Origin: a phage
Sequence record: PZ386953.1
Direction: 5' to 3' (one strand)
Length of the DNA stretch: 64,000 bases
Shown: positions 44,962 to 64,000 of the stretch, one piece after another
Position numbering within the stretch: position 1 is the first letter of the stretch
Layout: each line of letters opens with the position of its first letter
Notes under the pieces: model-generated
Seen by the model: only the letters and a program-made list of their open reading frames with translations
Databases searched by the model: none
Told to the model about the DNA's origin: nothing
Translations under genes and position numbers: made by a program

Positions 44962-45253
44962 AAACATTACCCCAGCAGGGTTCTTAAAAGTATACCGTGA
45001 ACTGCTATATACTACAGAGGACAGTGTTCTAGAGTATCCAGAATATCTTTTGCTGTATAAGTATCTGCAGGAGGCTGGTGAAAATCTGCCAGTTAGTGCA
45101 GAAGGTGGTCCGAACTGGATATACAGCGCATGGAGAAAGGTTGACATTCTCCCAGATCCAGGTAAAGATATGGTAGTTTGGCAGCTTATCAACAACATTG
45201 GGATTCCAATCTTTGATGAAGCTGTTAAAATCTATTTTGAACTTGACGATTAA
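44951..45253 (+). CDS. hypothetical protein
   Basis: ATG about 9 nt after AGGAG; short overlap with upstream gene. Confidence 0.35.
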   Translation: MKTENITPAGFLKVYRELLYTTEDSVLEYPEYLLLYKYLQEAGENLPVSAEGGPNWIYSAWRKVDILPDPGKDMVVWQLINNIGIPIFDEAVKIYFELDD

Positions 45254-45270
45254 TATCAGGAGACCTTAAG

Positions 45271-45516
45271 ATGACTGAAGTAGTTGCTCGCGCAGGACAG
45301 AAAGTACGTTGTGTTGAAGTAGGTTTTGGTGGCAAAGGGTGTCAAAACTTGACTCAAGGTAAGGAATACGCTGTTATTTCTGGTGGTGGCGACGAAAGTA
45401 TTGTGTTCGAGGGCCACATCCTGGATGCTGAAAACTTTGAAATCTTTGACGACGATGGGGATCCGATCACCTGCCTGCTGGACGGGAATTGGGGAACTTT
45501 CGAAGTGATTGGCTAA
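45271..45516 (+). CDS. hypothetical protein
   Basis: 81 aa; CAGGAGA RBS. Confidence 0.4.
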   Translation: MTEVVARAGQKVRCVEVGFGGKGCQNLTQGKEYAVISGGGDESIVFEGHILDAENFEIFDDDGDPITCLLDGNWGTFEVIG

Positions 45517-45599
45517 CAAATACCTATTGTAATTTGCAGAAGGGGATGCTAAAATAGTGTCTCCTTCTATGTTGTTCAAATAAAATCGGAGATTCCATA

Positions 45600-45965
45600 A
45601 TGGAACAAATGAACGATCAAGCGTCGGTTGCGATGAACGAGCAAGAACAACCTCAAGAATTTTTCTTAGGGTTAAGTAAAGATCAAGTGTCTCTTCTACT
45701 AGTGCTTTCTTCTTTCATGGGAAGACTTCAGGAGCTCACACAACAACCAGAGGCTGAACAATTATTTCAAGCTCTGCGTGAAGAAGAAAAATATCGTCGT
45801 TTGGACTATGCCTTAGGTTGGGTAGCTCAACAACGAGATATGCTGATGGCCCTCTCTGGGACCACAAGTTTTGCAATGGGGCTGTTGGCTCAAGTTCAGG
45901 ACAAATTAATTCAAGCAGGGTTTGCACACACGGCAAACACTAACGAAGAACAAGGAGACAAATAA
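45600..45965 (+). CDS. hypothetical protein
   Basis: 121 aa; promoter-like TTGTAA-17-TAAAAT at 45527-45555 upstream. Confidence 0.4.
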   Translation: MEQMNDQASVAMNEQEQPQEFFLGLSKDQVSLLLVLSSFMGRLQELTQQPEAEQLFQALREEEKYRRLDYALGWVAQQRDMLMALSGTTSFAMGLLAQVQDKLIQAGFAHTANTNEEQGDK

Positions 45966-47191
45966 TGAGCGTTATTCAACAATTCGCTAACCCGATGAAT
46001 CCGCGTGAAACTGTTTTACTGGCTCACGGCATGATTAAACGTGTCAGCATCAAGCCTATCAAAGGTGCTGATCCTACAACAGGTATTAAAACCACTGTGT
46101 GGCAAGGTAAGAAAATTGAATCCAGCCACACCATCTCTTTACTGATTTCTGAACTGGATTCCTCTGATAACCTGCTTCAAGGTGGTGAAGAAGTTTGGAT
46201 CAGCATGGGTGATAAGCTGCTTAAACCTGGTCATCAAGACTCTGTCTCTGTTAAAATTGATGACAAGTGGGAAACCGTAACGCCGGGATGGATCGTAAAT
46301 ATTCCTTTGAAGGCAAACGAGCATAACGGTAAGACCTATTACAAAGGCTCACTGGCTAAGATGGTCAAGCTGGGTGCAGGAGAGGCTCCAGCAGCGACTC
46401 AGCAGCAAAAACAGCAACAAGGTGCACAATCACAAGGCCAGAAGCAGAAACCTCAGCAGAATGCCAATCAGGACGTTTTACGCATCTATGGTGATGTGAC
46501 TCAGATTGTTGGCAACGTGGTTACTGTTAATGACCACAAGATTGGCGAAGGTGCTATGGTTGTAACTGATGAGCAGCTTAAAGACCTGGTGGTAGGTGGT
46601 CGTGTTGCAGCCATTGTTGACAAAGACACCGGAAACATTATCAGTGGTTTCAAGGCCTATCCTCCTAAGGCAGAGAACGGCACTCAAGGCTCTGGTGGCA
46701 AGCGTAAATCCTCTTACGACCCTATCGGTGTGGAAACGGGGCATAGCATCAATGCGTTGCAGATCATCCTGGATCGCGGGTTTAAGGTAGACGACCCACT
46801 GGGCGTGGCTAAAACACTGCACGTAGTCACCATTGAGCTTAAGAAAGAGTATGCTCAAGCCACCAACCGAACTGAAGATGAAGTAGGTGCCAGTGTCGGT
46901 AATGCGGTGTTGAACGCTTGTCGCCGTATTGACAAGAAAACGAAAGTTGATGATTTTGCAGTGGCAATTACTGCAGAAGCAAAAGATGTCTTGACTAATC
47001 TAGCTGAGCCGTTGTACGATTGGATCAAGAACGGTGCTGAGTCCACTGACCATCAAGAACCTCAGGCTGCCAAACAGGAAGCAGCTCCACAGCAAAACAC
47101 TGTAGACGCTCCTCCTGTAAATGATGCGGAAGATGACCCAATGGATCAGAATCCAGCACAGTACGTCTTTGATGATGACATCCCATTTTAA
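45965..47191 (+). CDS. DNA-binding protein with SSB-type acidic C-terminal tail
   Basis: 408 aa ending ...YVFDDDIPF (E. coli SSB ends DDDIPF); Q-rich and G-rich linkers; TAATG overlap; terminator follows. Confidence 0.45.
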   Translation: MSVIQQFANPMNPRETVLLAHGMIKRVSIKPIKGADPTTGIKTTVWQGKKIESSHTISLLISELDSSDNLLQGGEEVWISMGDKLLKPGHQDSVSVKIDDKWETVTPGWIVNIPLKANEHNGKTYYKGSLAKMVKLGAGEAPAATQQQKQQQGAQSQGQKQKPQQNANQDVLRIYGDVTQIVGNVVTVNDHKIGEGAMVVTDEQLKDLVVGGRVAAIVDKDTGNIISGFKAYPPKAENGTQGSGGKRKSSYDPIGVETGHSINALQIILDRGFKVDDPLGVAKTLHVVTIELKKEYAQATNRTEDEVGASVGNAVLNACRRIDKKTKVDDFAVAITAEAKDVLTNLAEPLYDWIKNGAESTDHQEPQAAKQEAAPQQNTVDAPPVNDAEDDPMDQNPAQYVFDDDIPF

Positions 47192-47203
47192 CATTTAGTT
47201 AAC

Positions 47204-47234
47204 ATAGCCCTGCCCGAAAGGGTGGGGCATTTTT
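47204..47234 (+). terminator. intrinsic terminator
   Basis: GCCCTGCCC-GAAA-GGGTGGGGC then ATTTTTG. Confidence 0.7.
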
Positions 47235-47253
47235 GTATAAGGAGATCTAAAAA

Positions 47254-47670
47254 ATGACATTAGAAGATATCATTGTTAAACCTGAGAACTATGACCAATA
47301 CAACCTGTCAACTCAATCTGTAGACCTTGGATGCGCCACGGTCAGTGCGTGGCTGGTTAACGGAAAAGAGCTGGATAAATGCTTAGAAGCTCACATGTCT
47401 ATTAACAAGTTTCTGGATGAAAATACTCACTGGCTTGAGGGTGCAGGAGTATATGCTTCATGGTTGGAAAGTATGGGATTCGACTACCAATCTGAAGAAG
47501 GGTGGTGGAGCTATTTAGCTATCTGCCCAGAGACGCTGCAATGCTTCATGAAATATTCTGAAGATTTGGAGTACCGGGCGGTGGTTGATAGTGCTATTGC
47601 CCGTTATAGCCGTAAACCTTTTTCCCACGACATTAAAACTGTGGAAGAGTTTGTTGAAGTTTTCTGTTGA
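47254..47670 (+). CDS. hypothetical protein
   Basis: 138 aa; TAAGGAGA RBS. Confidence 0.4.
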   Translation: MTLEDIIVKPENYDQYNLSTQSVDLGCATVSAWLVNGKELDKCLEAHMSINKFLDENTHWLEGAGVYASWLESMGFDYQSEEGWWSYLAICPETLQCFMKYSEDLEYRAVVDSAIARYSRKPFSHDIKTVEEFVEVFC

Positions 47671-47766
47671 CACAGGTGGAAAGGTGTGCAATTATAACTT
47701 CATAGAACGGGAGGACGTGATGAACGAAGAAAACTGGGATGTATAACTAACAGGAGGCCACTGCCC

Positions 47767-47964
47767 ATGATTTATCGAATCCGTGTAAGAGAAGATGCAC
47801 CAGGCTGTTACTTTGACTGGCGTGGGTGGTGGTTTCTCCACCCAATGGATGGACTCACGGATAGAATGCTGGATGCTGCCCTTTATACAGATACCGACAT
47901 AGAATATAATCTCTATCTGAAGGACGGTATAGATAACGGCCTGTTTGAAGCAATTCCTGTGTAA
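47767..47964 (+). CDS. hypothetical protein
   Basis: 65 aa; AGGAGG RBS; promoter 47667-47696 upstream. Confidence 0.35.
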   Translation: MIYRIRVREDAPGCYFDWRGWWFLHPMDGLTDRMLDAALYTDTDIEYNLYLKDGIDNGLFEAIPV

Positions 47965-48029
47965 GAGACTGTGATAGCTATGTTTTATGATCTTCCTGTA
48001 ACACCACCTGTTGAACCCGGAGAACTAAG

Positions 48030-48455
48030 ATGATCTATGAAATGCCAAAACTGATTCGTGACGATGCCCAAAACGCCCACACCTTTATCATGGGCAAGCG
48101 CATGGATATTATTTGTCATAAAGATTTCTGGGAAGGTAGTTACTTCACAGAATATTTTGGTAAACTGGATAATGGTCTGCTGATCCAGTTCTACACCGAT
48201 GCGGAAAACAATATCTGCTGGGAGTTCGAAACTGAAGATATCCATAAACTTTTCACCTTCCTAGGTATTAAGGTTGAGGCCAAGTTTGAAGAAGGCGAGT
48301 GCGACGATTGTGGATTCTACGAGGTAACAGATTTCTATCTCCCAAGTGGTGAGAACCTTTACTATGAAAGCCACTTCGGCAACTCAAATATGCCACAAGG
48401 TTGGGATGAGTTTTTTGAAATTGCGGAAGAGGAGCTGACATACCGTGATTATTGA
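48030..48455 (+). CDS. hypothetical protein
   Basis: 141-aa ORF. Confidence 0.4.
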   Translation: MIYEMPKLIRDDAQNAHTFIMGKRMDIICHKDFWEGSYFTEYFGKLDNGLLIQFYTDAENNICWEFETEDIHKLFTFLGIKVEAKFEEGECDDCGFYEVTDFYLPSGENLYYESHFGNSNMPQGWDEFFEIAEEELTYRDY

Positions 48456-48903
48456 TACTGTAGCGGGAGATTTAATCTCCCTTTTTAAGAGCGGTGCTGG
48501 TCACCTGATCCACGGTTGTAACTGCTTTCATACAATGGGTGCAGGCATAGCGAAAGATATTGCCCGTGAGTTCCCTCAAGCACTGGCAGCCGACAAAGAG
48601 ACTGCCTATGGTAATCTGGACAAGCTGGGTATGTTTTCTTGTTGGGAGCATTTTGCCAAGAACAGGGTCGTATATGGAATCAACCTGTATACCCAGTTCT
48701 ACCCAGGGCCCAATGCTGAATACTTCTCAATAATGAAAGGTTTTGAGCGAGTCAACGAGGTATTCAAAGGTGTGTCATTGCCGTTCTACATTCCTAAAAT
48801 TGGATGCGGTATTGGCGGTCTAAAGTGGGAACATGTAGAAGATGTAATTAATCTTGCAACCACAGATATTGATGTGGTTGTAGTAGAGTACAAAAAGTGT
48901 TGA
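48445..48903 (+). CDS. macro-domain-like protein (ADP-ribose binding/processing?)
   Basis: N-terminal HGCNCFHTMGAGIAKDI and later IGCGIGGL resemble macro-domain glycine-rich loops. Confidence 0.4.
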   Translation: MIIDTVAGDLISLFKSGAGHLIHGCNCFHTMGAGIAKDIAREFPQALAADKETAYGNLDKLGMFSCWEHFAKNRVVYGINLYTQFYPGPNAEYFSIMKGFERVNEVFKGVSLPFYIPKIGCGIGGLKWEHVEDVINLATTDIDVVVVEYKKC

Positions 48904-48928
48904 CGACCATCTTCTGAGGTGATATAGT
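48900..48928 (+). promoter_or_regulatory. sigma70-like promoter
   Basis: TTGACG-17 bp-TATAGT. Confidence 0.5.
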
Positions 48929-48957
48929 TTCCACAACAACTAAGAGAGGAGAGCACT

Positions 48958-49128
48958 GTGGAGACTAAAATCTTAATTCTTGCTGTGGTAGATACAACCG
49001 AAGGAGCTATATTCGAATCTGCAGGGGGGTATTTCTACCTACCATACGGAAAAAGAACTTCCGAGCCAAGTAAAGATTCAATCCTCAAGGTGTTCCCGTG
49101 TGCTTTCTGGCTGGAGATTTTGGTATAA
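48958..49128 (+). CDS. small hypothetical protein (56 aa)
   Basis: GTG 8 nt after GAGGAGAG, downstream of promoter 48900-48928; below tool size cutoff. Confidence 0.25.
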   Translation: METKILILAVVDTTEGAIFESAGGYFYLPYGKRTSEPSKDSILKVFPCAFWLEILV

Positions 49129-49155
49129 GATTGCAGAGGATTTGGGAGAGAATTA

Positions 49156-49349
49156 TGAGAAACAAGAAAGAGCTTTACTCTGGTGAGTGGATCAACGATC
49201 AACAGGTGGGAGAGGTAACCTGCTTCCGATGTTTTACCAGGTACAATCTTAAAACTGCACCAAAAAGTGTTCCAAAGACTGATGGTTATTACATAAAAGA
49301 ACCTCATTGCCCAAAATGTAAATGCCGATTATACTGGAGTAACCTATAA
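49156..49349 (+). CDS. small zinc-ribbon protein
   Basis: ATG after GGGAGAGA; CFRCF...CPKCKC pairs. Confidence 0.35.
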
Positions 49350-49353
49350 AAGA

Positions 49354-49381
49354 TTGACATCTGAAAACTGCAGTGTATAAT
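49354..49381 (+). promoter_or_regulatory. consensus sigma70-like promoter
   Basis: TTGACA-16 bp-TATAAT. Confidence 0.55.
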
Positions 49382-49412
49382 ATATGCATAAACTAACAGA
49401 GAGTGATGTATT

Positions 49413-49604
49413 ATGGTAATTTTTAACCGGGATGGTATCATAGTTAGACAGCACCCCTTCCTTGAATACTATCAAATTGAGCAATGGTGCTACGGGGATT
49501 GCAGTCACTCCTACGGGCAAAGTTGGGGATATCGCACAGTTTTTGAATCAACAGATCTTGATAAAGTAAAACAGAAAGTTTTAGAACTTCTTAACAACAA
49601 GTGA
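49413..49604 (+). CDS. hypothetical protein
   Basis: 63 aa; consensus promoter 49354-49381 upstream. Confidence 0.35.
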   Translation: MVIFNRDGIIVRQHPFLEYYQIEQWCYGDCSHSYGQSWGYRTVFESTDLDKVKQKVLELLNNK

Positions 49605-49614
49605 GTATCGTGCC

Positions 49615-49947
49615 ATGGTAACTTTGGAAAGACGTAAAGCTATCGCCGCCACACTGGCAGACATCTTTTGGGATTGCAACTTAAAAGATACCCGAAATTG
49701 TGGCGCATCTGTAGATGTATTATTCCCACGGCCCACCATTGTTGCAATGGGAAACCTGTTAAACGTAGTGTACGGAGCATGGGACAAAGAAGGTGGATTC
49801 TATATCTGGCAACCTGACTACGGAGCCTGGAAAGAGGTAAGGGGTGCGGATGACTTTGGGCCTACAGTTGCTAAGATGGATGGCTGGGAAATTTATGTTG
49901 GAAACGACATGAAGCTGAAAGGCGAGATTGTTTACTGGTTACCTTAA
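49615..49947 (+). CDS. hypothetical protein
   Basis: 110-aa ORF. Confidence 0.4.
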   Translation: MVTLERRKAIAATLADIFWDCNLKDTRNCGASVDVLFPRPTIVAMGNLLNVVYGAWDKEGGFYIWQPDYGAWKEVRGADDFGPTVAKMDGWEIYVGNDMKLKGEIVYWLP

Positions 49948-49967
49948 GAAAGTGCAGGAGATAAAGT

Positions 49968-50213
49968 ATGAACAAAGGGTGGACATTTGTAGACGGCGTT
50001 AAAAACATGCCTCTAGGAAAGTATATCGTAGCCATGGCTGATGAGGATGGCAATGTAGATTTCGGAGCTTGCGAGGTTGTTCTTGCAGGATCTGGTAACT
50101 ATGTGAGTAAAACCGGGATAATTAACGGTCAGTTCTACTTTGATCACAACCCTGTTGTAGCGTATATGGCTATGCCAGAGTTCAAGTTCCCAAAGGAGGG
50201 TGCAGATGTTTAA
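49968..50213 (+). CDS. hypothetical protein
   Basis: 81 aa; CAGGAGA RBS. Confidence 0.4.
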   Translation: MNKGWTFVDGVKNMPLGKYIVAMADEDGNVDFGACEVVLAGSGNYVSKTGIINGQFYFDHNPVVAYMAMPEFKFPKEGADV

Positions 50214-50403
50214 GCTTAAATCTGCATGGAACATCGCTGTGGGGGACGAGATCCGTATCCCAGGTGGAAAGACCATTATGAAGATATCTCGTATTGAGTA
50301 CGAAGGTGACCGTGTATTCCACATCTTCGCAGAAGATGGTCGAGAAATTTATATACAGGCAGGTTCTCACATCTATATCCGTAAGAAAGGGGACGACAAA
50401 TGA
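50206..50403 (+). CDS. hypothetical protein
   Basis: ATG 5-6 nt after AAGGAGGG. Confidence 0.4.
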   Translation: MFKLKSAWNIAVGDEIRIPGGKTIMKISRIEYEGDRVFHIFAEDGREIYIQAGSHIYIRKKGDDK

Positions 50404-50729
50404 CAGAGATCATCATTTCAACTGCAGGGTATGTGTTCCTGACAATCATTGCACTGACTATTTTGGTGACAGTGTATGGGTTTGTTATCCTTCCTATCCT
50501 TGAGACATTTAGTTTGTGTCGGTGTTGGAGAAAAGCTTACGGTCCACAACCATGGAAGGACTGGCCCCACCTGGTGCGCTTAGCGTTCTCTTATGCTTAC
50601 GATCACTACAGTAGTGCATGCATAACCGGATACCACGCCCACAACTGGAGCTGGGAAGGGTTGAGGAAATGGAATGTTACAAAGACCATACCTCTGCGCA
50701 TGTACAAACCTAAAAACAAAGACAACTGA
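50400..50729 (+). CDS. membrane protein
   Basis: 109 aa with long N-terminal hydrophobic segment; ATGA overlap. Confidence 0.4.
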   Translation: MTEIIISTAGYVFLTIIALTILVTVYGFVILPILETFSLCRCWRKAYGPQPWKDWPHLVRLAFSYAYDHYSSACITGYHAHNWSWEGLRKWNVTKTIPLRMYKPKNKDN

Positions 50730-50732
50730 TAC

Positions 50733-50761
50733 TTGAAAATTCCTGGCATATCAAGTATAAG
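50733..50761 (+). promoter_or_regulatory. sigma70-like promoter inside a palindrome
   Basis: TTGAAA-17 bp-TATAAG; embedded in TACTTGA...TCAAGTA inverted repeat. Confidence 0.4.
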
Positions 50762-51036
50762 GGGGATTTCTAAAATGGATTTCCTCCTTTTGATATTTCA
50801 CCGGGCTGGATATTTTAAAATTCTTAGAAAATCAGAAAATGGATCGAAAACTAAAATGTATTTTTCAGAGTAGGCGCGACAAGCTGAATAACTCATCCTA
50901 TCGTTTGCACCATATTCCAGGCCACCATTATAGATTTTCCCACACATGCTCACATCCTTCTACCAGAACTTTCCCACTCGCCCTTGGCCTTTTATGGCAA
51001 TAATCCAGCCACTATCTTGAAGTTGCGGTACAGCTT

Positions 51037-51128
51037 TCCAAGTACTCGATCTGTTTTTCGTTTCAAAGATTGAATTTTCTGAAAATTTTTCTCGATAAAT
51101 TTCCAAGTACTCGATCTGTTTTTCGTTT
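51037..51128 (+). repeat. iteron-like direct repeats
   Basis: TTCCAAGTACTCGATCTGTTTTTCGTTT at 51037-51064 and 51101-51128; partial third copy TCGATTTTTCGTTTT at 51189. Confidence 0.7.
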
Positions 51129-51332
51129 TCTGAATCGGATTTTCTGGAAATCGTTCCAGCTCTCTACCTGAAATTTTTGGGGACGAAATCGATTTTTCGT
51201 TTTCAGAAATGGATTTTTAAAATTTCTATATGGGAATATTTTATGGGATACTGTTTTATAGGAAATTGTTACGGAGGGTAATTAGCATGCTAATTAAATT
51301 TATTAAATGCGAGGAGTTCTCATTTAGAATTT

Positions 51333-51350
51333 TGAATGATAATCATTCTC
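51333..51350 (+). promoter_or_regulatory. Fur-box-like sequence
   Basis: TGAATGATAATCATTCTC matches about 15 of 19 positions of GATAATGATAATCATTATC; weaker copy at 51464-51480. Confidence 0.3.
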
Positions 51351-51365
51351 GTTTGCAGAATAACG

Positions 51366-51388
51366 GGCAGGCCCGGTGATTGTCTCCC
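51366..51388 (+). repeat. 23-bp GC-rich element, copy A
   Basis: GGCAGGCCCGGTGATTGTCTCCC; exact reverse complement at 60968..60990; diverged tandem copy at 51505..51540. Confidence 0.75.
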
Positions 51389-51745
51389 GGCCCCTGTTGC
51401 CCCGGCTTGTTATTATAGTATCACACAGGACAAAGAAGGCAAGGATTTTTTGCATAAATTTTTAAATGATAATGATAACCGTTCTCATTTTATGCAGCGC
51501 CCATCCCCGGTGGTTGTCTCCCCCGTCACCGGTGCCTGCCGTCCTTTCGATAGGTATATTGTGCCCCCCCTGGCGGGGCCGCTGTCAACACCTTTTCAAA
51601 AAATTTTTCTAACCTGATGCGCTAACCGTTGCAACCTGGCGGGGCCAGCCTGGCAGGACCTAACTGACCAGGTGGGAGAGGGTGAAATCTTGCAAACCTG
51701 GTAGGCCCATGCTGTAGGGTAAACAATTGAAGAGGAGGTACAAAA

Positions 51746-51886
51746 ATGAAAGGTAATGCTACTCACCTGGGAAATGTAGTGATTAATGATACAGAAGCGC
51801 GGGAACATAAAGAAGAGTACGAAAAAATGGTGGTTAACCTGGCGGGGGCGGCAGGTGGATTCTATCATAAAAATAATTTAAAATAA
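51746..51886 (+). CDS. small protein (46 aa)
   Basis: ATG after GAAGAGGAGG; below tool size cutoff. Confidence 0.35.
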   Translation: MKGNATHLGNVVINDTEAREHKEEYEKMVVNLAGAAGGFYHKNNLK

Positions 51887-51889
51887 TCG

Positions 51890-51918
51890 TTGACAACAAG
51901 GTTAATCATGGTATTATT
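51890..51918 (+). promoter_or_regulatory. sigma70-like early promoter
   Basis: TTGACA-17 bp-TATTAT. Confidence 0.5.
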
Positions 51919-51967
51919 ACCCTACAAGGTGAACAACACCGCACTAACCAGTAAAGAGGATAAAATC

Positions 51968-52165
51968 ATGAACGCATACGGGATCAAAGTACGTCGCAAC
52001 ACTCGCCAGGTGGTCACCGATCAAATGGTTTGCCAGGTGGACGTAACCATCAACAACGGGCAAGGCCTTTATAAATTCCGTCGCGGTCAGAGCTATACCC
52101 GGCAACAGCTTAATCGTTGCGCCCTGACAAAAGGACAGATCAACCACTGGTTTAATAAAAAATAA
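51968..52165 (+). CDS. small basic early protein (66 aa)
   Basis: ATG after AAGAGGATAAAATC leader; promoter 51890-51918 (tool start 51890 is the -35 TTG). Confidence 0.5.
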   Translation: MNAYGIKVRRNTRQVVTDQMVCQVDVTINNGQGLYKFRRGQSYTRQQLNRCALTKGQINHWFNKK

Positions 52166-52168
52166 GTA

Positions 52169-52197
52169 TTGACATATAGTCCGACACCAAATACACT
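52169..52197 (+). promoter_or_regulatory. sigma70-like early promoter
   Basis: TTGACA-17 bp-TACACT. Confidence 0.45.
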
Positions 52198-52229
52198 AAA
52201 AGCACAAAAGACACTAAGAGGATAAAATC

Positions 52230-52628
52230 ATGAAAACCACCACCTTTAATTTTGATAATGCGGACTTTTCTTTTTCTGATGTCAAGAACTGCCGCCGTGA
52301 TCGTGGATTTTACAAGGCTTATAATCTGGTGGGCCTGGACGATGACAATAATTTGCACGAAGTAGCTGAGATCCGGTATTATGCCGCCGCCAGCGGGAAC
52401 ACTCACTACTGCGTGTTTTGGATTCACGACAACAAGAACAATAAGTACGGTTATACTGGCGGCAAGGCGAGCGGTCACGGTTACGATAAAGCTAACGCAG
52501 CACTTGAGAGCGCATTAAATGCTATGGGGATCACTGCCGACGGCTGGATCTACGAAGAAGAGTTTTTGTCGGCACTTGCTGACCACCTGGGCTATAAAAA
52601 ACACATTGTAACATGCGCCCACGAATAA
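52230..52628 (+). CDS. hypothetical early protein
   Basis: 132 aa; identical AAGAGGATAAAATCATG leader; promoter 52169-52197. Confidence 0.5.
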   Translation: MKTTTFNFDNADFSFSDVKNCRRDRGFYKAYNLVGLDDDNNLHEVAEIRYYAAASGNTHYCVFWIHDNKNNKYGYTGGKASGHGYDKANAALESALNAMGITADGWIYEEEFLSALADHLGYKKHIVTCAHE

Positions 52629-52710
52629 AAATCATTGACACGCTGCAAAATTTAAGTAAACTAGACACAAAAGGCGGGAATGTTTCCCGCCAGCACAAAG
52701 GAAAAAGATC

Positions 52711-53106
52711 ATGAATAAGAACGTACGCCGCATCATGAACGAACTGGCAAACGATGAAAAAATTATTGATATGCATTTGGTCAACATTTGCCGCCGTTGT
52801 GTAACATATAACAACCGCGCCGCAAAAGCGCGTGAGATGAACGCAAAAGGCACCTTAAAGCCCTTTCAGGTGGTTGTAAAATCTATAACTAGCGCAGCAG
52901 GCCAGGCGCAGGACCACAACAACGAGAGCGCTAATATTGATCCGTCTTACGTAATGAAACGGATCCGGACTTGCAAGAATAAAGAGCAGGTATATAACGT
53001 CATAGATTGGCTGGACTCCCTGGGCGATGTGGTTTACAATAGGTTTTCTGCAGCTATCGAGATCCAGCTTGACAGATTGGACGGGAAAGTACTAAAAACT
53101 TATTGA
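52711..53106 (+). CDS. hypothetical early protein
   Basis: 131 aa; promoter 52635-52662, leader hairpin 52673-52691. Confidence 0.5.
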   Translation: MNKNVRRIMNELANDEKIIDMHLVNICRRCVTYNNRAAKAREMNAKGTLKPFQVVVKSITSAAGQAQDHNNESANIDPSYVMKRIRTCKNKEQVYNVIDWLDSLGDVVYNRFSAAIEIQLDRLDGKVLKTY

Positions 53107-53108
53107 GT

Positions 53109-53154
53109 TTATTTTTAGATGGCCTTGACACCAGGGCCATCAATAAAGTAAACT
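53109..53154 (+). promoter_or_regulatory. 46-bp palindromic promoter box, copy 1
   Basis: TTATTTTTAGATGGCCTTGACACCAGGGCCATCAATAAAGTAAACT; 7-bp inverted repeat GATGGCC/GGCCATC brackets the -35 TTGACA. Confidence 0.55.
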
Positions 53155-53186
53155 AACCACAGTTGAGCGGAAAAGGAGGCTTAAAG

Positions 53187-53306
53187 ATGAGCACTACACG
53201 CCAGCACACAAAGGTAACCATCATCGTTTGCATCATTGGGTACATCCTGGCGCAAATGTTGATGGGTAGCGCCAACGGTGTCGCAAAATTTTTCTTAAAC
53301 TTTTAA
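53187..53306 (+). CDS. small hydrophobic peptide (39 aa)
   Basis: ATG 6 nt after AAGGAGG, downstream of promoter box 53109-53154; one hydrophobic helix. Confidence 0.35.
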   Translation: MSTTRQHTKVTIIVCIIGYILAQMLMGSANGVAKFFLNF

Positions 53307-53334
53307 TTGACAAGCTAACTTAAATCGATATAAT
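53307..53334 (+). promoter_or_regulatory. consensus sigma70-like early promoter
   Basis: TTGACA-16 bp-TATAAT. Confidence 0.55.
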
Positions 53335-53385
53335 AAGCACATAAACGGGAAAACTTCCCAGAACACACAAAAGGAGAAAAACACC

Positions 53386-53727
53386 ATGACTACTATGACC
53401 GCCTCAGAAAAAGCTATGCAGATCGCTGAACTGAAAAAACAGATCGCAGACCTTGAGAATAAGATCGATAACTTTGAAATCGACGAGGACAAGTACGACG
53501 AAAACTATGATGAATGGTTAGACGAGATCTACGGCGAAATTATGATCGGAAACATTTCTTTTCTTCCGTCGCGTATCCTCAAGGAGCTAGATCCTATCGC
53601 TTACCGCTGCGGATTTAGCGACTACATCGACAGCCTGGATATTGAGAACGATGAAGAATACCAGGAATTACAGACAGAGTTAGAAGAAGCAAAAGAAGAG
53701 CTTGCGGAGCTGGAAGAAAACGAGTAA
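53386..53727 (+). CDS. highly acidic coiled-coil early protein
   Basis: 113 aa, D/E-rich, ends EELAELEENE; consensus promoter 53307-53334. Confidence 0.5.
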   Translation: MTTMTASEKAMQIAELKKQIADLENKIDNFEIDEDKYDENYDEWLDEIYGEIMIGNISFLPSRILKELDPIAYRCGFSDYIDSLDIENDEEYQELQTELEEAKEELAELEENE

Positions 53728-53729
53728 GC

Positions 53730-53775
53730 TTATTTTTAGATGGCCTTGACACCAGGGCCATCAATAAAGTAAACT
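53730..53775 (+). promoter_or_regulatory. 46-bp palindromic promoter box, copy 2
   Basis: Identical 46-mer to copy 1, immediately after a stop codon. Confidence 0.55.
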
Positions 53776-53816
53776 TTATACTGTTAACACTGAACGAATG
53801 CATAGGAGTTAAAACC

Positions 53817-54062
53817 ATGGCAGCACTAATCACCAAATATTATGCCCCTACCAATACCAAAAGCGCCCGTATCATGGTAAAAGGCTTCGGACGTAAAAAG
53901 GTGTACACCTGGGATTATGCCTTAGACACGGAAGACAACTACACCAACGCAATGACCGATTTTATTAATGAACTAAATAAGCAGATCTTGACAAGTTATA
54001 AAGTGACCGATATTGCTTATATAGGTGAAGGCGGGATCTGTTTTGTAGGCATTGTGAAATAG
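53817..54062 (+). CDS. hypothetical early protein
   Basis: 81 aa; ATAGGAGTTAAAACCATGGC leader repeated at 58407; promoter box upstream. Confidence 0.45.
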   Translation: MAALITKYYAPTNTKSARIMVKGFGRKKVYTWDYALDTEDNYTNAMTDFINELNKQILTSYKVTDIAYIGEGGICFVGIVK

Positions 54063-54110
54063 TTATTTTTTCGGTGGTCCTGGTTGCAGGGCCATCTATA
54101 AAGATAATTT
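54062..54110 (+). promoter_or_regulatory. diverged promoter box, copy 4
   Basis: TTATTTTTTCGGTGGTCCTGGTTGCAGGGCCATCTATAAAG: same layout, degenerate arms. Confidence 0.3.
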
Positions 54111-54136
54111 ATTAACACCATGAAAGGAGAAAGTAC

Positions 54137-54490
54137 ATGATCAGCGGGGCAAGTTTTATTATTGGCGCTATTGCTACGGCTTTAATTGTAAATAAGATCC
54201 AGGATAAAAAGGAAAGAGGAAGTACCGCCCTTGCAGAATATCCATTTTGGGCATTCAACGATAACGAAGATTATATTATAAAGTATAAAAATAAAGAAGG
54301 TGACCAAGTAACACCGCGACCGATCCCGGCTTACAAAATGCAGGAAACACTATACCGCCTGAAGGCGGGGGGCGCAAAAATTGTAGACTTTTGGGGATAC
54401 GACCACACAGATCAGGAAGTTATAAAGCGCCGTATCCGGGCTATTCAGGCCAATATTGAAGTTAGCAAGGGGGGAATATATGAAAATTAA
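54137..54490 (+). CDS. membrane-anchored early protein
   Basis: 117 aa, N-terminal hydrophobic helix; GAAAGGAGA RBS. Confidence 0.45.
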   Translation: MISGASFIIGAIATALIVNKIQDKKERGSTALAEYPFWAFNDNEDYIIKYKNKEGDQVTPRPIPAYKMQETLYRLKAGGAKIVDFWGYDHTDQEVIKRRIRAIQANIEVSKGGIYEN

Positions 54491-54677
54491 TTTCGAGAAA
54501 ATTGTAAAGCGCCCTCATGATTCCGAAGAGCTGCCAGAACGCCGCCAGCGTAACAATAAACTGAATAAGCCAAAAAGGTTTGGGAAGATCTGGCGTAATC
54601 ATTATGATCGTAAATTGCCCGGCCTACTTTTGGAACGTGAACGACAGGCAGAACGATACCGCCATAAAGACAAATAA
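54480..54677 (+). CDS. small basic protein (65 aa)
   Basis: ATG after AAGGGGGG, overlaps upstream stop; terminator follows. Confidence 0.35.
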   Translation: MKINFEKIVKRPHDSEELPERRQRNNKLNKPKRFGKIWRNHYDRKLPGLLLERERQAERYRHKDK

Positions 54678-54685
54678 CAACCAAC

Positions 54686-54715
54686 TCCCCGCCATTGTGC
54701 GGGGCTTTTTATTTC
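54686..54715 (+). terminator. intrinsic terminator
   Basis: CCCCGC-CATTGT-GCGGGG then CTTTTTATTTC. Confidence 0.65.
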
Positions 54716-54836
54716 TATCCTACGAATAGCGCCCCTGGTTGGCCCTGTAAGCGCCAAAAAGGCCCCCACCTATGCAATCGCCCCCCTTTAACCTGAAAAC
54801 ATCGCCCATGGCCGTTTCATGGCGTTAAAAATATCA

Positions 54837-54864
54837 TTGACATCGTCAACAGGTTAGCTATACT
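54837..54864 (+). promoter_or_regulatory. sigma70-like early promoter
   Basis: TTGACA-16 bp-TATACT. Confidence 0.5.
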
Positions 54865-54896
54865 AACCACATCAAAGAGAGAAAGGAGTAAACGCC

Positions 54897-55157
54897 ATGC
54901 GTAAATTAAAAAATTTTGATAAAGTTGATGTTATCCTGAATAATTTTTACTACTGCAACAACAAGGCTATTTGGTGGCGTGATAGTTCCACCGATAAAGT
55001 TAAGGCGCGCTTTCTTCAAGGGCACTGGCAAGGCCGCCCAGTGATTAAAATCATGGGGCAATTGGTAGCTTTCAAAAATTGCCGCCGTGCTGATGATATC
55101 GAAGATATCTTGAACGTTTTACGCTACAACAATTTTAAAAATAGTGTTGACAAGTAA
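54897..55157 (+). CDS. hypothetical early protein
   Basis: 86 aa; promoter 54837-54864; GAAAGGAG RBS. Confidence 0.45.
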   Translation: MRKLKNFDKVDVILNNFYYCNNKAIWWRDSSTDKVKARFLQGHWQGRPVIKIMGQLVAFKNCRRADDIEDILNVLRYNNFKNSVDK

Positions 55158-55174
55158 GATTAAACAAGTATACT
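55147..55174 (+). promoter_or_regulatory. sigma70-like early promoter
   Basis: TTGACA-16 bp-TATACT, overlaps upstream stop codon. Confidence 0.5.
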
Positions 55175-55231
55175 TAATCACATAGGCGGGAAAAATTCCC
55201 GCCACCGCCGAAGAAAATAGGAGAAAATATC

Positions 55232-55855
55232 ATGACTACCGTTAACATTACCGCAGGTTACAATTTATCTTTCGACGTGCTGACCGACGAACAAAAAGAA
55301 AAAGCCGTTGAAATGGTCCGCGAAAGAGAGGAAAACAGCGGTGATAACTTTTTCGCAGAAAGCGTAATTGAATACTATAAAGAATATGTTTTTCCAGAGT
55401 ATGGCCTTGAAGATACCGAAGTACATTGGTCAGGCTTTTGGTGCCAGGGTGACGGCGCGTCAATCAGTGCTGAAAACGTGGATTTAGAAAAATTTTTGCG
55501 TAAAGTAAAGGCCCTGACCAAGTTCCGATCAATTCGTCACTTGTTCGGCACAATGCACGATGGCGAGTTATCAGCCAGTGTTGAACGCGACAAGTACAGC
55601 CATTACAGCCATGAAAACACTGTAAGCGGGTACATTGATACCACTTGGCTAGATCTGACCGCCAAACAAGAAAACAAAGTGGAAGACCTGGAAGAACTGA
55701 TCACCGAGACGGTACGGGAGCTATCCCGCAAGGTTTACGTAGACCTGGAGGAGGCCTATCTAGAACAGTTCACCGCAGAAAACCTGATCGGCCTTATCGA
55801 GGCCAATAACTGGCGGTTTGATGTCGATGAATATGGTGAGATGACTTTTTCATAA
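55232..55855 (+). CDS. acidic early protein
   Basis: 207 aa, net acidic; promoter 55147-55174 and leader hairpin 55185-55203. Confidence 0.5.
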   Translation: MTTVNITAGYNLSFDVLTDEQKEKAVEMVREREENSGDNFFAESVIEYYKEYVFPEYGLEDTEVHWSGFWCQGDGASISAENVDLEKFLRKVKALTKFRSIRHLFGTMHDGELSASVERDKYSHYSHENTVSGYIDTTWLDLTAKQENKVEDLEELITETVRELSRKVYVDLEEAYLEQFTAENLIGLIEANNWRFDVDEYGEMTFS

Positions 55856-55863
55856 ATAAAGTG

Positions 55864-55891
55864 TTGCAATAACCTAAAAACCTGCTATATT
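55864..55891 (+). promoter_or_regulatory. sigma70-like early promoter
   Basis: TTGCAA-16 bp-TATATT. Confidence 0.45.
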
Positions 55892-55945
55892 AAAACTCAA
55901 GGGGGCAAGACGTTTGCCCCAACACAAAACAAAGAGGATAACATC

Positions 55946-56326
55946 ATGAAAAACACTACCAAGGCTATTGACACCGTTATGTTTAACCTGGTTACATTCC
56001 GTGAAGATATGAAAGATCTTCCTCGTGAAACAGTGTGCGACCATATCGAAAACTATCGCAAACTAATCAAAGAGTTGCCTTTAAAACGTGATCAATATGC
56101 GGCTAACGCCATGCTTAATGCCATGATCAAAAAGATGATCCAGTGTGATTTAACCCTGGCCTATGATTATGCAGGCGGTCGTTTTGCAGTATACAATCAG
56201 CCCGTGCCCGGTATGAGCACCACCGAAGAATTGCACGCGCTCAATCTAAAACAAGACGTGTGGGATAGTATGCCTCGCGTGGTGGTATGGGTAGAAAGCG
56301 GAAAGATTTACGGCGATAATTTTTAA
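55946..56326 (+). CDS. hypothetical early protein
   Basis: 126 aa; promoter 55864-55891, leader hairpin, AAAGAGGATAACATCATG. Confidence 0.45.
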   Translation: MKNTTKAIDTVMFNLVTFREDMKDLPRETVCDHIENYRKLIKELPLKRDQYAANAMLNAMIKKMIQCDLTLAYDYAGGRFAVYNQPVPGMSTTEELHALNLKQDVWDSMPRVVVWVESGKIYGDNF

Positions 56327-56390
56327 TCAGGTAGCAGGCGGCATATTTGCCGCCTTATTGTTAATCAGAACTGTAAAAGAGGTACATAGA

Positions 56391-56762
56391 ATGGAATTTA
56401 TTATTTTGGCTGTATTGGTTGCCTTGTTTAACGCCTGGATCGCTGGCAAGATGGGAAGATCCGCCTTTTTATGGTTTATTATATCTATTTTCCTGGGGGT
56501 GGTTGCAACTATTGTATTGGTTATCCTTGCAATTGTTGACAAGGGGAATAATAGAAAGGGTAAAGTATTTTCAGACCTGTACGACGCTCAAACGTTTGTC
56601 AACGCCTATTATAGTGATCTTCCAGTCTCCCTACGCTGCAGCCTGGCACAACAGGTTTTTGATGAGGCTAAAACCAGAGATCAAGCCCATGAGATATGTT
56701 TAACTGAGGCGGATCGCCTATTTGAGAGGAATAGAAAATATGTGGGCCAACCGTTTAAATAA
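56391..56762 (+). CDS. membrane protein
   Basis: ATG after AAAGAGG; two predicted TM helices. Confidence 0.45.
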   Translation: MEFIILAVLVALFNAWIAGKMGRSAFLWFIISIFLGVVATIVLVILAIVDKGNNRKGKVFSDLYDAQTFVNAYYSDLPVSLRCSLAQQVFDEAKTRDQAHEICLTEADRLFERNRKYVGQPFK

Positions 56763-56985
56763 TGCCACGTTAATTAATCCCTTTAGTGAAGATTTGAAGC
56801 CAGCCGCCTGGCGTGACGGATTCAATAACGAACGCTTTATTTTCAGGCCTGATCTTGAGGAATTTTATAACAATGGATCGAACAACAGCGGAGATAATTT
56901 TTCTTGTGGTGTGCGTGGTGATGGTACTCCTGGGGGCCATTGTAAACCACGTCACTACTACCAGAAGGAAAGGGGGAGACGATGA
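56740..56985 (+). CDS. hypothetical protein (frame uncertain)
   Basis: ATG after GAGAGGA; TGA overlaps next start (ATGA); an alternative 41-aa TM peptide ORF exists in another frame (56873..56998). Confidence 0.3.
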   Translation: MWANRLNNATLINPFSEDLKPAAWRDGFNNERFIFRPDLEEFYNNGSNNSGDNFSCGVRGDGTPGGHCKPRHYYQKERGRR

Positions 56986-57101
56986 CAACCAAGGATAAGC
57001 CATGTACCGATAAGGTGCGCCGCGTTATGGTATGGCTTGAGATTATCGCCCTTGAAATATTGCTAGGCGTAGGGATGTACTTTATCGCTGTAAGTAACTA
57101 A
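56982..57101 (+). CDS. small membrane peptide (39 aa)
   Basis: ATG 6 nt after AAGGGGGAG; one TM helix; terminator follows. Confidence 0.35.
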   Translation: MTTKDKPCTDKVRRVMVWLEIIALEILLGVGMYFIAVSN

Positions 57102-57104
57102 GAA

Positions 57105-57134
57105 CGGCCCCCGATCATGGGGGCCTATCTTTTA
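57105..57134 (+). terminator. intrinsic terminator
   Basis: GGCCCCC-GATCAT-GGGGGCC then TATCTTTT. Confidence 0.6.
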
Positions 57135-57240
57135 AAAAAATTTTTCTTCCGTGGTGTTGCAATCCGATCCGGAATGTGGATAATAACAATCAACGGGGAG
57201 CTAATCCCCACCACCACAAAAACCAGAAAGGAGAAACAAA

Positions 57241-57441
57241 ATGAGCAACAATATCCGCGTTATTAACTTCAAAAAAGAAGAAAAAATTGCCGTGCTGATT
57301 GACGGTCAAGAAATCTTCAAGGGCGACTATGAAGATCATCAAACGGCGATTAGTATCACTCGCGTGATTGGTTACCATAATTTCTACCCCCAAGGCGCTG
57401 AGGCAGCAGTTAAACGAATCAAAGAGATTGTAGGCCTGTAA
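57241..57441 (+). CDS. hypothetical early protein
   Basis: 66 aa; promoter 57157-57186; GAAAGGAGA RBS. Confidence 0.45.
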   Translation: MSNNIRVINFKKEEKIAVLIDGQEIFKGDYEDHQTAISITRVIGYHNFYPQGAEAAVKRIKEIVGL

Positions 57442-57444
57442 AAT

Positions 57445-57490
57445 TTATTTTTAGATGGCCTTGACTTCAGGGCCATCAATAAAGTAAATT
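57445..57490 (+). promoter_or_regulatory. 46-bp palindromic promoter box, copy 3
   Basis: Same box with 3 substitutions (TTGACT, TAAATT). Confidence 0.5.
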
Positions 57491-57532
57491 TAAACCCTGT
57501 TAAAATAATCAGTGCAAAAAGGAGTAATGGTC

Positions 57533-57832
57533 ATGTTTATACCCGCCAATAATCTTTATTTCTTTGATGGTCAGATCGTAGACGGTGTGGAAGTGGAGAT
57601 CACTGGGTGCCCTGGTGGTCAGGCTATGACTTTTCGGAATAATGCCTTTGATGATTCTCGTATCGTTATGAGAATGGAAGTTACAAAGCTGGACGACAAG
57701 AAAACACTCATTGACTATTCCGTGAAAGATCATCCAGACCACCACATGATCTATGGTGATTTGTGCATTGTTGACCGTGACAAGGTGAGCGGCATTGTGA
57801 TCGCTATTGTGAACGATGTTTTCTCAAACTAA
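57533..57832 (+). CDS. hypothetical early protein
   Basis: ATG 8 nt after AAGGAG (tool GTG start is 21 nt upstream); promoter box 57445-57490. Confidence 0.45.
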   Translation: MFIPANNLYFFDGQIVDGVEVEITGCPGGQAMTFRNNAFDDSRIVMRMEVTKLDDKKTLIDYSVKDHPDHHMIYGDLCIVDRDKVSGIVIAIVNDVFSN

Positions 57833-57849
57833 TTTCAGCAGGTGATTTT

Positions 57850-58200
57850 ATGAAAGTTAAATTATATTACCTCAATGAGCTTAACCCGCTTGCACAAGTC
57901 CACGCCCTGGATAACGCTGTTTATTGTGAAAAGTCTATATACAGTGTTGAGCTTAACGCTATGCGTGAACGCCTTAAAGGCGGTTACTTTGACATCCATG
58001 CTGCAATCAACGGCCTGAATATAGAATTTATCCGCTTACGTAACAGCCGCCAGAATCTGGCAAGAATGGAACAAGATCCGGCCCACCTTCGTAAGCTGGT
58101 TATTGAAAATCATCTGATGTTTAATGCCGATGGTGATTATTACCATTTTCACCGTAAACGCTGGTACCGTAGCGGCAATATAGGAAAGAATGCAAAATAA
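57850..58200 (+). CDS. hypothetical early protein
   Basis: 116 aa; terminator follows. Confidence 0.45.
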   Translation: MKVKLYYLNELNPLAQVHALDNAVYCEKSIYSVELNAMRERLKGGYFDIHAAINGLNIEFIRLRNSRQNLARMEQDPAHLRKLVIENHLMFNADGDYYHFHRKRWYRSGNIGKNAK

Positions 58201-60879: not shown

Positions 60880-60967
60880 ATAAAAAGTGCTTTGGTACTG
60901 ATTTTGGGGGTTGACTTGTTCGGCCCCTTTTGCTATTCTTATTAAACGGGCGGCACTTGGGAACAGG

Positions 60968-60990
60968 GGGAGACAATCACCGGGCCTGCC
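60968..60990 (-). repeat. 23-bp GC-rich element, copy C (inverted)
   Basis: GGGAGACAATCACCGGGCCTGCC is the exact reverse complement of copy A. Confidence 0.75.
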
Positions 60991-61098
60991 TGTCATATAA
61001 GAACTATAAAAACCGTTGACATCTGCCAGGTGGTGGGGTAACATTTATCTTGAAGGGGCAAAAGTGCCCACACAACAACCAGAAGAGAGGAAAACATT

Positions 61099-62262: not shown

Positions 62263-62280
62263 TTTCTTAACTGAACTATC

Positions 62281-62310
62281 AGGGGCTTTAAAAGGCCCCT
62301 TTCTTTTTGT
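62281..62310 (+). terminator. intrinsic terminator
   Basis: AGGGGC...GCCCCT hairpin then TTCTTTTTG, ends the early array. Confidence 0.65.
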
Positions 62311-63360: not shown

Positions 63361-64000
63361 TCCTCTTTGTCAAGTGCTGCATGAAAAATTTACAAACTGG
63401 TATGGTAGCATTTTTGCGGCCCTGTTTACATTCAGCGATGTATGTATAAACCTTGCTGTGTGGGCGTTTAGACGTCTAGACGGTTGGAAGTCTGCAGGTC
63501 AATATCTAATCTATTGGCTGCTAACCATATCCCACACAAATAGTAATAAATATAATTGTTATATGCGTAAACAGTAACTCATGTTATCAATCCCTGTATG
63601 TATCGCCAGTGGTGCGCATAATGGGTATTATGTTAAATTGCCCGTAATGATAACTATTCTCACAATGATAGGTATTCTCATTCACCCCCACAAGATAGGT
63701 TGCAAATGTTGTGCCACTGTGTGAACGGCCTAGCCTATTAATTTGCCTCACTGCCTTGATATTTGAGAATTGTTATAAGAATGAGAAGTATTCCCATTTC
63801 GTCCGCTTGGCAGCACTCCAGTCGCTACCGGCTCCTGACAGGGCAGCACTCCTGTCGGTCAGGTCAAAATCGTGGTATAACTGGACCTGTTCAGATATTT
63901 CTGGCTGACTCTTCAGGCCTGTGTGGGAAAAGCCGACCCCTCCGGCGGCGGGGAGGGGGTCAATTAAAAAATTTACGGGGTATATGAAGCGCTCTTCAGG

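Follow-up and report, generated by a model that had tools for sequence, protein, structure and literature searches.

Fur-operator-like boxes in a conserved tandem promoter cassette within a gene-free gap of an rV5-like phage

The subject of this study is a tandemly duplicated, GC-rich element with Fur-box-like sequences at 51331-51590 of a 64,000-nucleotide stretch of phage DNA (record PZ386953.1), the whole of which is called the window. Escherichia phage ime and rV5_ev146, both members of Vequintavirus (Vequintavirinae), have 99.5% and 99.3% identity, respectively, to window positions 51000-52200, and the phage is an rV5-like Vequintavirus infecting E. coli. The element lies in a gap of ∼1 kb (50730-51745) inside a co-directional series of plus-strand genes, where all open reading frames (ORFs) are 54 amino acids or shorter except for one of 93 amino acids derived from the repeats. 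To the left stands a plus-strand block that includes a family-A DNA polymerase (40009-42786). To the right follows an array of small plus-strand genes, the majority with their own sigma70 promoter, and the annotation of phage CarlMeissner places every gene from 51.7 to 62.3 kb on the plus strand. An earlier note on this DNA had described the element as gene-free and next to an early region, which holds loosely: the site is a ∼1-kb gap within a co-directional gene series.

The two halves of the element, unit 1 (51331-51455) and unit 2 (51461-51590), are diverged tandem copies of one another, as the note had proposed. Their local alignment scores 53, compared with 18.1 ± 3.1 for 500 shuffled sequences (maximum 32), and the GC-rich core claimed for both, CCCGGTG(A/G)TTGTCTCCC, is indeed identical between them except for one base. 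The start-to-start distance is 134-136 bp and not 130 (repeat families D5 and D6). Scored with model R1, module u1 (51360..51428, plus strand; core GGGCAGG..CGGTGATTGTCTCC and an AT box) reaches 48.7 bits (E 4e-14), being itself a copy used in the model, and module u2 (51496..51570, plus strand; diverged core CGGTGGTTGTCTCC and an AT box) reaches 32 bits (E 7e-9). The element is present at 51331-51590 but is not confined to it, since the window has a third core at 60928-60996 and, at 63643-63800, a second group of Fur-like boxes.

To evaluate the AT-rich boxes, the Fur consensus 19-mer GATAATGATAATCATTATC was scored over the whole 64-kb window. The top two matches fall within the element, at 51468 (16/19) and 51332 (15/19), each accompanied by overlapping matches 6 bp apart. 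With up to three mismatches allowed the window holds one match against 0.00 expected, and for the 7-1-7 form TGAKAATNATTMTCA with up to two mismatches it holds eight against 1.28 expected; compared with the 7-1-7 inverted-repeat unit TGATAATnATTATCA, the sequence TGATAATCATTCTCG differs at two positions. Fur box 1 (51332..51356) is composed of overlapping 19-mers 6 bp apart at 51332 (TTGAATGATAATCATTCTC, 15/19) and 51338 (GATAATCATTCTCGTTTGC, 14/19), includes the perfect 15-bp palindrome GAATGATAATCATTC, and is almost unchanged across genera. Fur box 2 (51462..51492) contains three overlapping 19-mers, at 51462 (13/19), 51468 (16/19) and 51474 (13/19). Upstream of box 1, the degenerate sequence aaatgcgaggagttctcattt (51307..51327) represents the decayed remnant of a second box found intact in other genera (e.g. 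AATGAGAATGATTCTCATTT); relatives carry two to four boxes ∼29-30 bp apart, as in CR3 (locus L034), where they stand at 8085, 8123, 8152 and 8181.

The boxes also match an operator of the host. The E. coli K-12 fhuA promoter reads ctttATAATAATCATTCTCGTTTACg, in which 16 consecutive bases, ATAATCATTCTCGTTT, are those of window positions 51339-51354; Fur gel-shifted the fhuA site, and clusters of overlapping Fur sites with 6-bp spacing have been described (Chen et al., PMC2189734). Moreover, scanning a single genome of each bacterial species for the exact 19-mer palindrome AATGAGAATCATTCTCATT gave at least 120 loci, against ∼1 expected by our own estimate. This is the form present in T5-like and other phage contigs, and it differs from the box of the Salmonella and Cronobacter relatives at the central base alone. 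Of the first 20 ORFs with a start within 100 nucleotides of AATGAGAATCATTCTCATT, taken unselected, ten belong to metal or iron metabolism or transport: FTR1 iron permease (2), a TonB-dependent receptor, ExbB, solute-binding proteins (2), ZnuA, Nramp, a FUR-family regulator and a porin. Three independent tests (identity with fhuA, the number of bacterial loci with AATGAGAATCATTCTCATT, and the metal or iron functions of the ORFs beside it), like the consensus scores, strongly support at the sequence level the proposal that the boxes represent Fur operators, and we infer that Fur would bind them in infected cells.

The 93-amino-acid ORF (51336-51617) starts at an ATG inside Fur box 1 and has no Shine-Dalgarno sequence. 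Across genera its sequence varies almost equally at codon positions 1, 2 and 3 (0.140, 0.141 and 0.124), and the frame from the box ATG, read by hand, stays open for 8, 26, 51, 83 or 93 amino acids depending on the genus (8 in Mydo, 26 in Salmonella R7). Indels of -2 and -1 nucleotides between the window and 10 close relatives shift the frame for ∼30 nucleotides, and a Pfam search with the ORF gave no match. As a gene it was rejected on these grounds, and the view that it merely translates the repeat, lacks a ribosome-binding site and marks non-coding DNA agrees with the absence of codon-position bias and of a kept frame. The annotated gene W70_22 of a relative (L184 872-1111) is likewise a spurious ORF that translates repeats.

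The same note had suggested a structured RNA, and here the results point the other way. Rfam gave no matches at E≤1 in window positions 45000-58000 and six relatives, and fold z-scores ranged from +0.33 to -2.10 with neither strand significant. Covariance folding across related phages, which had been put forward as a check, gave no covariation support: RNAalifold returned three pairs (-1.05 kcal/mol, zero covariation term) for the plus strand and none for the minus strand, from an alignment (A3) with one row, L043, in the wrong orientation. The candidate CCGG/CCGG hairpin pairs in 64.5% of cells compared with 62.8% in shuffled alignments, and 192 of 500 shuffles equal it. Since z-scores, consensus folding and the hairpin test were all no better than background, a stable hairpin or small RNA was rejected. 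The terminator scan of the gap listed no intrinsic terminator after the core, its sole terminator-like site being at 51173-51210 on the plus strand, and a search for tRNA and tmRNA genes found none.

Promoter scanning of 17 distinct module variants instead drew attention to the strand opposite to the one on which the element was first read, where a sigma70-type promoter stands at a fixed place in nearly all variants. The -35 hexamer comes from a conserved 'CAAG' block (TTGCAA, TTGATC, TTGACA, TTGACT, TTGACC, TTGCCA) and the -10 hexamer from the AT box (TATATT, TATTAT, TATTCT, TATAAT, GATAAT, frequently with TGn). In the various lineages the spacer is 16-18 nucleotides long and variable in sequence, with 28-33 nucleotides from the end of the -10 to the core; such a pattern, with hexamers kept while the spacer between them varies, is typical of genuine promoters. 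In phAPEC8 the scan favoured a site elsewhere, and the corresponding promoter, TTGCTT-16-TATTCT, was read by eye.

In the window this promoter, P_L1 (51412..51442, minus strand), has the -35 TTGCCT (51442-51437), a 19-nucleotide spacer and the -10 TATAAT (51417-51412), with a predicted start near 51405, so that u1 read on the minus strand would supply the first ∼45 nucleotides transcribed. At the same position other genera have TTGCAA-17-TATATT, TTGATC-16-TATTAT, TTGACC-17-GATAAT and similar sequences. Unit 2 carries P_L2 (51558..51588, minus strand), with the -35 TTGACA (51588-51583), a 19-nucleotide spacer and the -10 CACAAT (51563-51558). In the relatives scanned (Gotham and APECc02) it reads TTGACA-17-(TGg)CACAAT, with a TGn extended -10 and a score of 11; the window spacer is 19 rather than 17 nucleotides because the C run at 51564-51570 is 2 nucleotides longer than in all 10 close relatives. 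These extra bases also shift the frame of the spurious 93-amino-acid ORF; they may have arisen as a sequencing error in the homopolymer or reflect a genuine promoter-down variant.

Because the conserved promoter lies beyond the core and on the opposite strand, the two units are best described as tandem leftward promoters. In the leftward direction each unit consists of a predicted promoter, the G-rich complement of the core and, ∼50-85 nucleotides after the predicted start, a Fur box; past the boxes comes an AT-rich stretch (51200..51330, GC 26-28%) and then three direct repeats of ∼65-74 bp (51032..51217; family D1), all three containing an inverted repeat and a run of Ts. The predicted leftward RNA is G-rich, with 3-4 runs of at least three Gs. 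The earlier arrangement, in which the Fur box is a leader ahead of the GC-rich core, is therefore not upheld: the best-conserved promoter is on the other side and the other strand, and the box is downstream of the core. Counted from the conserved leftward promoters, the Fur boxes fall at +50 to +85, and the only promoter that box 1 overlaps is a weak, non-universal rightward candidate read from the sequence, P_R (51332..51361, plus strand; TTGAAT, an 18-nucleotide spacer, CAGAAT).

A third cassette, u3 (60911..60996), has its core inverted at 60928-60996 on the minus strand (R1 47.1 bits, a copy also used in the model). Its promoter, TTGACT-17-(TGc)TATTCT at 60911-60939 on the plus strand, points rightward like the early genes, and this copy lacks a Fur box. 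Directly downstream are a further promoter, TTGACA-17-TAACAT, at 61016 and a plus-strand gene starting at 61099. With only plus-strand genes between 51.7 and 62.3 kb and this core copy inverted, u3 is antisense to the orientation in which the element was first read.

A distant blastn search found the unit-1 box and core at 78-87% identity beyond Vequintavirus, in phAPEC8-like Stephanstirmvirinae, Mydovirus, Certrevirus, and Serratia, Salmonella and 'Acinetobacter' phages, and the majority of these matches fall in unannotated DNA. Box and core are therefore shared by several genera, and both are conserved across Vequintavirinae and Stephanstirmvirinae. In nearly all relatives retrieved, the 0.6-1.4 kb around the element have either no annotated gene or none beyond short ORFs. 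Among 10 Vequintavirus relatives, 51280-51580 is nearly invariant and the sequence beyond 51600 is rich in indels. The order of parts is shared: three hairpin repeats of ∼65-75 bp, then one to four Fur-like boxes ∼29-30 bp apart, then GCAGAATAGCGGGCAGG..GGTGTTTGTCTC, the AT box (ATGTGTATAATATA), CAAGCGTCTTTACAnnTCTTTACAAA, and further GC-rich conserved blocks. Comparable GATC-containing repeats are found at the corresponding position in CR8, Mydo, ABPH49 and W70. This conservation, together with the Fur-box comparisons, supports the proposal of a regulatory or protein-binding locus beside the early genes, so far as sequence can establish it.

In Mydovirus a second, inverted cassette ∼7.3 kb from the main one carries both a promoter, TTGCTT-17-(TGc)TATTCT, and a Fur-like box; because this second copy keeps all three, promoter, leader and Fur box behave as one cassette. 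A further Mydovirus box cluster ∼10 kb from the main one mirrors the second cluster of the window (63643..63800), where Fur-like boxes of the 7-1-7 type at 63648, 63666, 63764 and 63782 form pairs 18 bp apart. Box arrays thereby bracket the early-gene block in both the window and Mydovirus. The second cluster is located in another large gene-free, repeat-rich region after the early genes (62263-64000), which has an additional Fur-like box at 63170 and many copies of the short repeats catgtaaac, aagtgtca and atagttgcc. The rV5 genome map shows a 'non-coding' box, in a paper that does not mention Fur (PMC3606486), and this is probably the 62263-64000 region.

Several further features were observed around the element. 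The AT-rich stretch beside the boxes contains a perfect 18-bp palindrome, TAATTAGCATGCTAATTA (51279-51296), kept in Vequintavirus with one variable base, and the three direct repeats may represent iterons or terminators in tandem. Relatives outside Vequintavirus have, on the right side of the cassette, extra conserved non-coding blocks, CTACCGGCGATCCACCTTCC ... GTTAGCCCCGCCTTTTCGCCGTGGGGTGGCG (L005 2100-2300, L006 2130-2300, L003 160-300, L184 1340-1480), followed by a second leftward promoter (e.g. TTGACG-17-CATAAT in CR8). The window lacks these blocks, and unit 2 seems to occupy that position instead. Just right of the element, W70, SKA64 and CB7 encode a small conserved minus-strand protein, MTxTTLHLMHxLxWQGGTVHQVA... 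(L184 1474-1740, L185 1479-1745 and L009 2276-2698, all minus strand), for which no counterpart was seen in the window. Four AACCTGGCGGGGCC-like motifs with CCWGG (Dcm) sites lie at 51567, 51633, 51695 and 51836, one of them in the P_L2 spacer; CCWGG in promoter spacers was considered as an early-promoter signature and dropped, being present in just 3 of 16. Several database records begin or end near the element, with break points in the repeats, from which we do not claim a terminus or pac site. About 16 'Campylobacter phage' records (host C. jejuni) are 92-99% identical to the window, several of them breaking inside the repeat region, and are probably mislabelled or contaminant assemblies.

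We propose that the element is a conserved non-coding control cassette, present in tandem, through which Fur would gate early non-coding transcription; we give this reading a probability of roughly 0.45. Early in infection, host RNA polymerase would transcribe leftward from P_L2 and P_L1, opposite to the direction of the flanking genes. With sufficient iron, Fur-Fe2+ on the boxes would stop or shorten the leftward transcripts, and it might also silence the weak rightward promoter overlapping box 1. When iron is scarce, Fur would leave, and transcription would enter the AT-rich stretch and the three hairpin repeats. Both the action of Fur as a block and a function for the leftward RNA are what we infer. 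Our favoured guess for that function is activation or priming of an origin, or else insulation of the early block, because tandem promoters, a G-rich RNA, AT-rich DNA and repeats would here be combined with a family-A polymerase and a primase-helicase. The rV5 phage encodes a primase-helicase like T7 gp4 (PMC3606486).

A number of observations weigh against this proposal. Binding and transcription in these phages are predictions only. P_L1 and P_L2 are perhaps weak, as their spacers in the window are 19 nucleotides long (score 8.5), and the P_L1 spacer has this length in all Vequintavirus. Fur operators usually overlap a promoter rather than lie 50-85 nucleotides downstream of it, and blocking from a downstream position is usually leaky. 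Since u3 consists of promoter and core without a Fur box, the core would have a role of its own, and no minus-strand gene follows the boxes. Against the origin idea in particular, DnaA boxes (up to one mismatch) are absent from the gap (50730-51760), and in rV5 the GC-skew changes only where the direction of transcription changes, with no origin defined (PMC3606486). Finally, 112 unrelated phage loci bearing the box show no clear box position relative to predicted promoters, perhaps due to differing hosts and promoters.

The boxes could alternatively belong to a classical Fur-repressed promoter, P_R, directed rightward, so that under iron starvation an RNA beginning with the GC-rich core would act as a small RNA or read through into the early genes. 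Box 1 covers the -35 and spacer of P_R, which is the usual geometry of Fur repression; TTGAAT is found in most lineages, the trailing GAAT of the -10 is nearly invariant, and a GC-rich stretch follows. P_R also faces the strong leftward promoter, with predicted starts ∼30-35 bp apart, such that transcriptional interference is possible. However, P_R matches the consensus at only 8 of 12 positions with an 18-nucleotide spacer and was not listed by the promoter scan; its -35 is missing from W70 and, with GTAAAT in its place, from phAPEC8-type phages; and its -10 lacks the essential A of position 2 in CB7, phiTE and L042 (CGGAAT) as well as in Mydo (CTGAAT). Moreover, (C/G)AGAAT can be read as a further Fur hexamer, and a T5-like sequence has GAGAAT beside its box. 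It was the missing -35, the loss of the -10 A in several genera and this second reading of (C/G)AGAAT that placed P_R among the rivals, and with neither a terminator after the core nor structure, covariation or an Rfam match for a rightward RNA, we consider it unlikely. As to the 93-amino-acid ORF being a real small gene, it is open in the window and in Vequintavirus and is annotated in Gotham, CarlMeissner, FFH2, APECc02, Murica and JEP1, yet most distant relatives have nothing annotated there, and given its start at the Fur-box ATG and the coding tests above we judge this extremely improbable.

Two further explanations retain the boxes as protein-binding sites and remove the iron switch or the host protein. 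In one, they form a cis-acting nucleoprotein locus, either an origin or an entry or boundary site like the T5 injection-stop (iss) region, with Fur or another host protein in an architectural role. The multi-part architecture of the gap, with three hairpin repeats, one to four boxes, core and further blocks conserved across subfamilies, would suit such a locus, as would the arrays flanking the early-gene block in the window (51.3 and 63.6 kb) and in Mydovirus and the T5-like injection-stop region, which has the same palindrome and at least five further boxes ∼31 nucleotides apart, near DnaA boxes (10.1101/866236). On the other side, DnaA boxes are absent from the window gap, the T5 region is not significantly similar beyond the box itself, and rV5-like phages are without a known terminal repeat or mapped origin (PMC3606486). 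We regard this explanation as quite unlikely, while noting that it overlaps the Fur-gated cassette and does not exclude it. In the other, the palindromes are operators of a phage-encoded repressor that resemble Fur boxes by chance, host Fur being uninvolved. This would account for the half-site ATTCTC being preferred over the consensus ATTATC, a change that is symmetric (TGAGAAT-N-ATTCTCA), and for the boxes adjoining a conserved core that resembles a site for a phage factor. Nevertheless, the ATTCTC form is that of the natural fhuA operator and stands beside iron-uptake genes in many bacterial phyla, and the phage lineages with the box are unrelated, so that a single repressor common to them is improbable; we judge this account very unlikely.

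It is instructive to compare the Fur-gated cassette with established systems. In common with E. coli Fur operators, the phage boxes have all 16 of 16 bases of the fhuA box, 15-16 of 19 consensus positions and overlapping sites shifted by 6 bp (PMC2189734), and their arrays resemble those of strongly regulated promoters; they differ in being located in a gene-free gap of a lytic phage, 50-85 nucleotides downstream of a promoter and with no iron gene nearby. RyhB-type small RNAs likewise pair a Fur box with non-coding DNA, whereas here there is no Rfam match, terminator, structure or sequence similarity, and transcription would run toward the box. In the primary origin of T7 an AT-rich region follows two tandem promoters, 1.1A and 1.1B, and T4 oriF is also activated by transcription. 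The gap resembles these origins, in layout only, in its tandem promoters, AT-rich stretch and repeats in non-coding DNA, combined with a family-A polymerase and a gp4-like primase-helicase, and departs from them in its host sigma70 promoters and in the Fur operator between promoter and AT-rich DNA.

Fur boxes are classical operators of bacteria; to our knowledge, the known phage Fur boxes all control cargo genes of temperate phages, stx1 being a further case of a Fur-controlled cargo gene on such a phage. Those of sitABCD on lambdoid phages (PMC6969025) are similar in placing a host Fur site on a phage genome but serve accessory genes of prophages, unlike the core control region of virulent phages described here. 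No description of the conserved core and box, or of Fur boxes in rV5-like, T5-like or other virulent phages, was found in the literature searched, where the sole paper naming both rV5 and a Fur box concerns sitABCD on lambdoid prophages; nor did we find a transcriptome for Vequintavirinae, or these promoter sequences in the rV5 supplementary files. What appears to be new is therefore the presence of probable host Fur operators in a conserved promoter-leader cassette of lytic-phage control regions.

The palindrome extends well beyond the rV5-like phages. The motif AATGANAATCATTCTC was found in at least 120 IMG/VR contigs (L011-L130; e.g. L022, L023, L038, L058, L059 and L080), mostly unrelated to the window phage, with the palindrome continuing past the bases that the motif forces and often in arrays. 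More generally, TGA(G/T)AAT-N-ATTCTCA is widespread in non-coding phage DNA, in arrays of two to four copies 22-35 bp apart. In T5-like phages it lies in the untranslated part of the terminal repeat, together with two DnaA boxes and at least five further Fur-like boxes ∼31 nucleotides apart (L307, Escherichia phage chee24, 2560-3120; also L012-L016, L032 and L040). The T5 iss region (Repeat Region 3) shares with the rV5-type gap a large untranslated extent packed with repeats and palindromes, a border with early genes, conservation exceeding that of its neighbours and arrays of the same palindrome; in contrast, T5 has paired DnaA boxes in its terminal repeat and the window gap has none. Homology between the T5 iss and rV5-type flanks was not significant outside the box, except weakly for CR8. 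The injection-stop region has been described as conserved and unexplained, in a text from which 'Fur' is absent (Davison, 10.1101/866236), and a Fur operator would offer its palindromes a testable identity.

In a wider sense, it is possible, if doubtful, that virulent phages of unrelated lineages (rV5-like, phAPEC8-like, Mydovirus, Certrevirus and, through the injection-stop region, T5-like) carry arrays of Fur operators bordering their early genes, by which Fur-Fe2+ would gate an early step of infection. Were this true, the gated step would be early or non-coding transcription, origin firing or DNA entry, and iron status would be a general input to lytic development. One immediate consequence is for annotation, as the 93-amino-acid 'hypothetical protein' in GenBank is corrected as spurious. 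Looking forward, the findings suggest that a strictly lytic phage reads the iron status of its host. If Fur binds these boxes, early transcription, and perhaps replication too, would be tied to the iron status of the host, which would bear on phage therapy: the phages concerned are used for typing and therapy, and iron differs sharply among laboratory broth, the gut and infected tissue.

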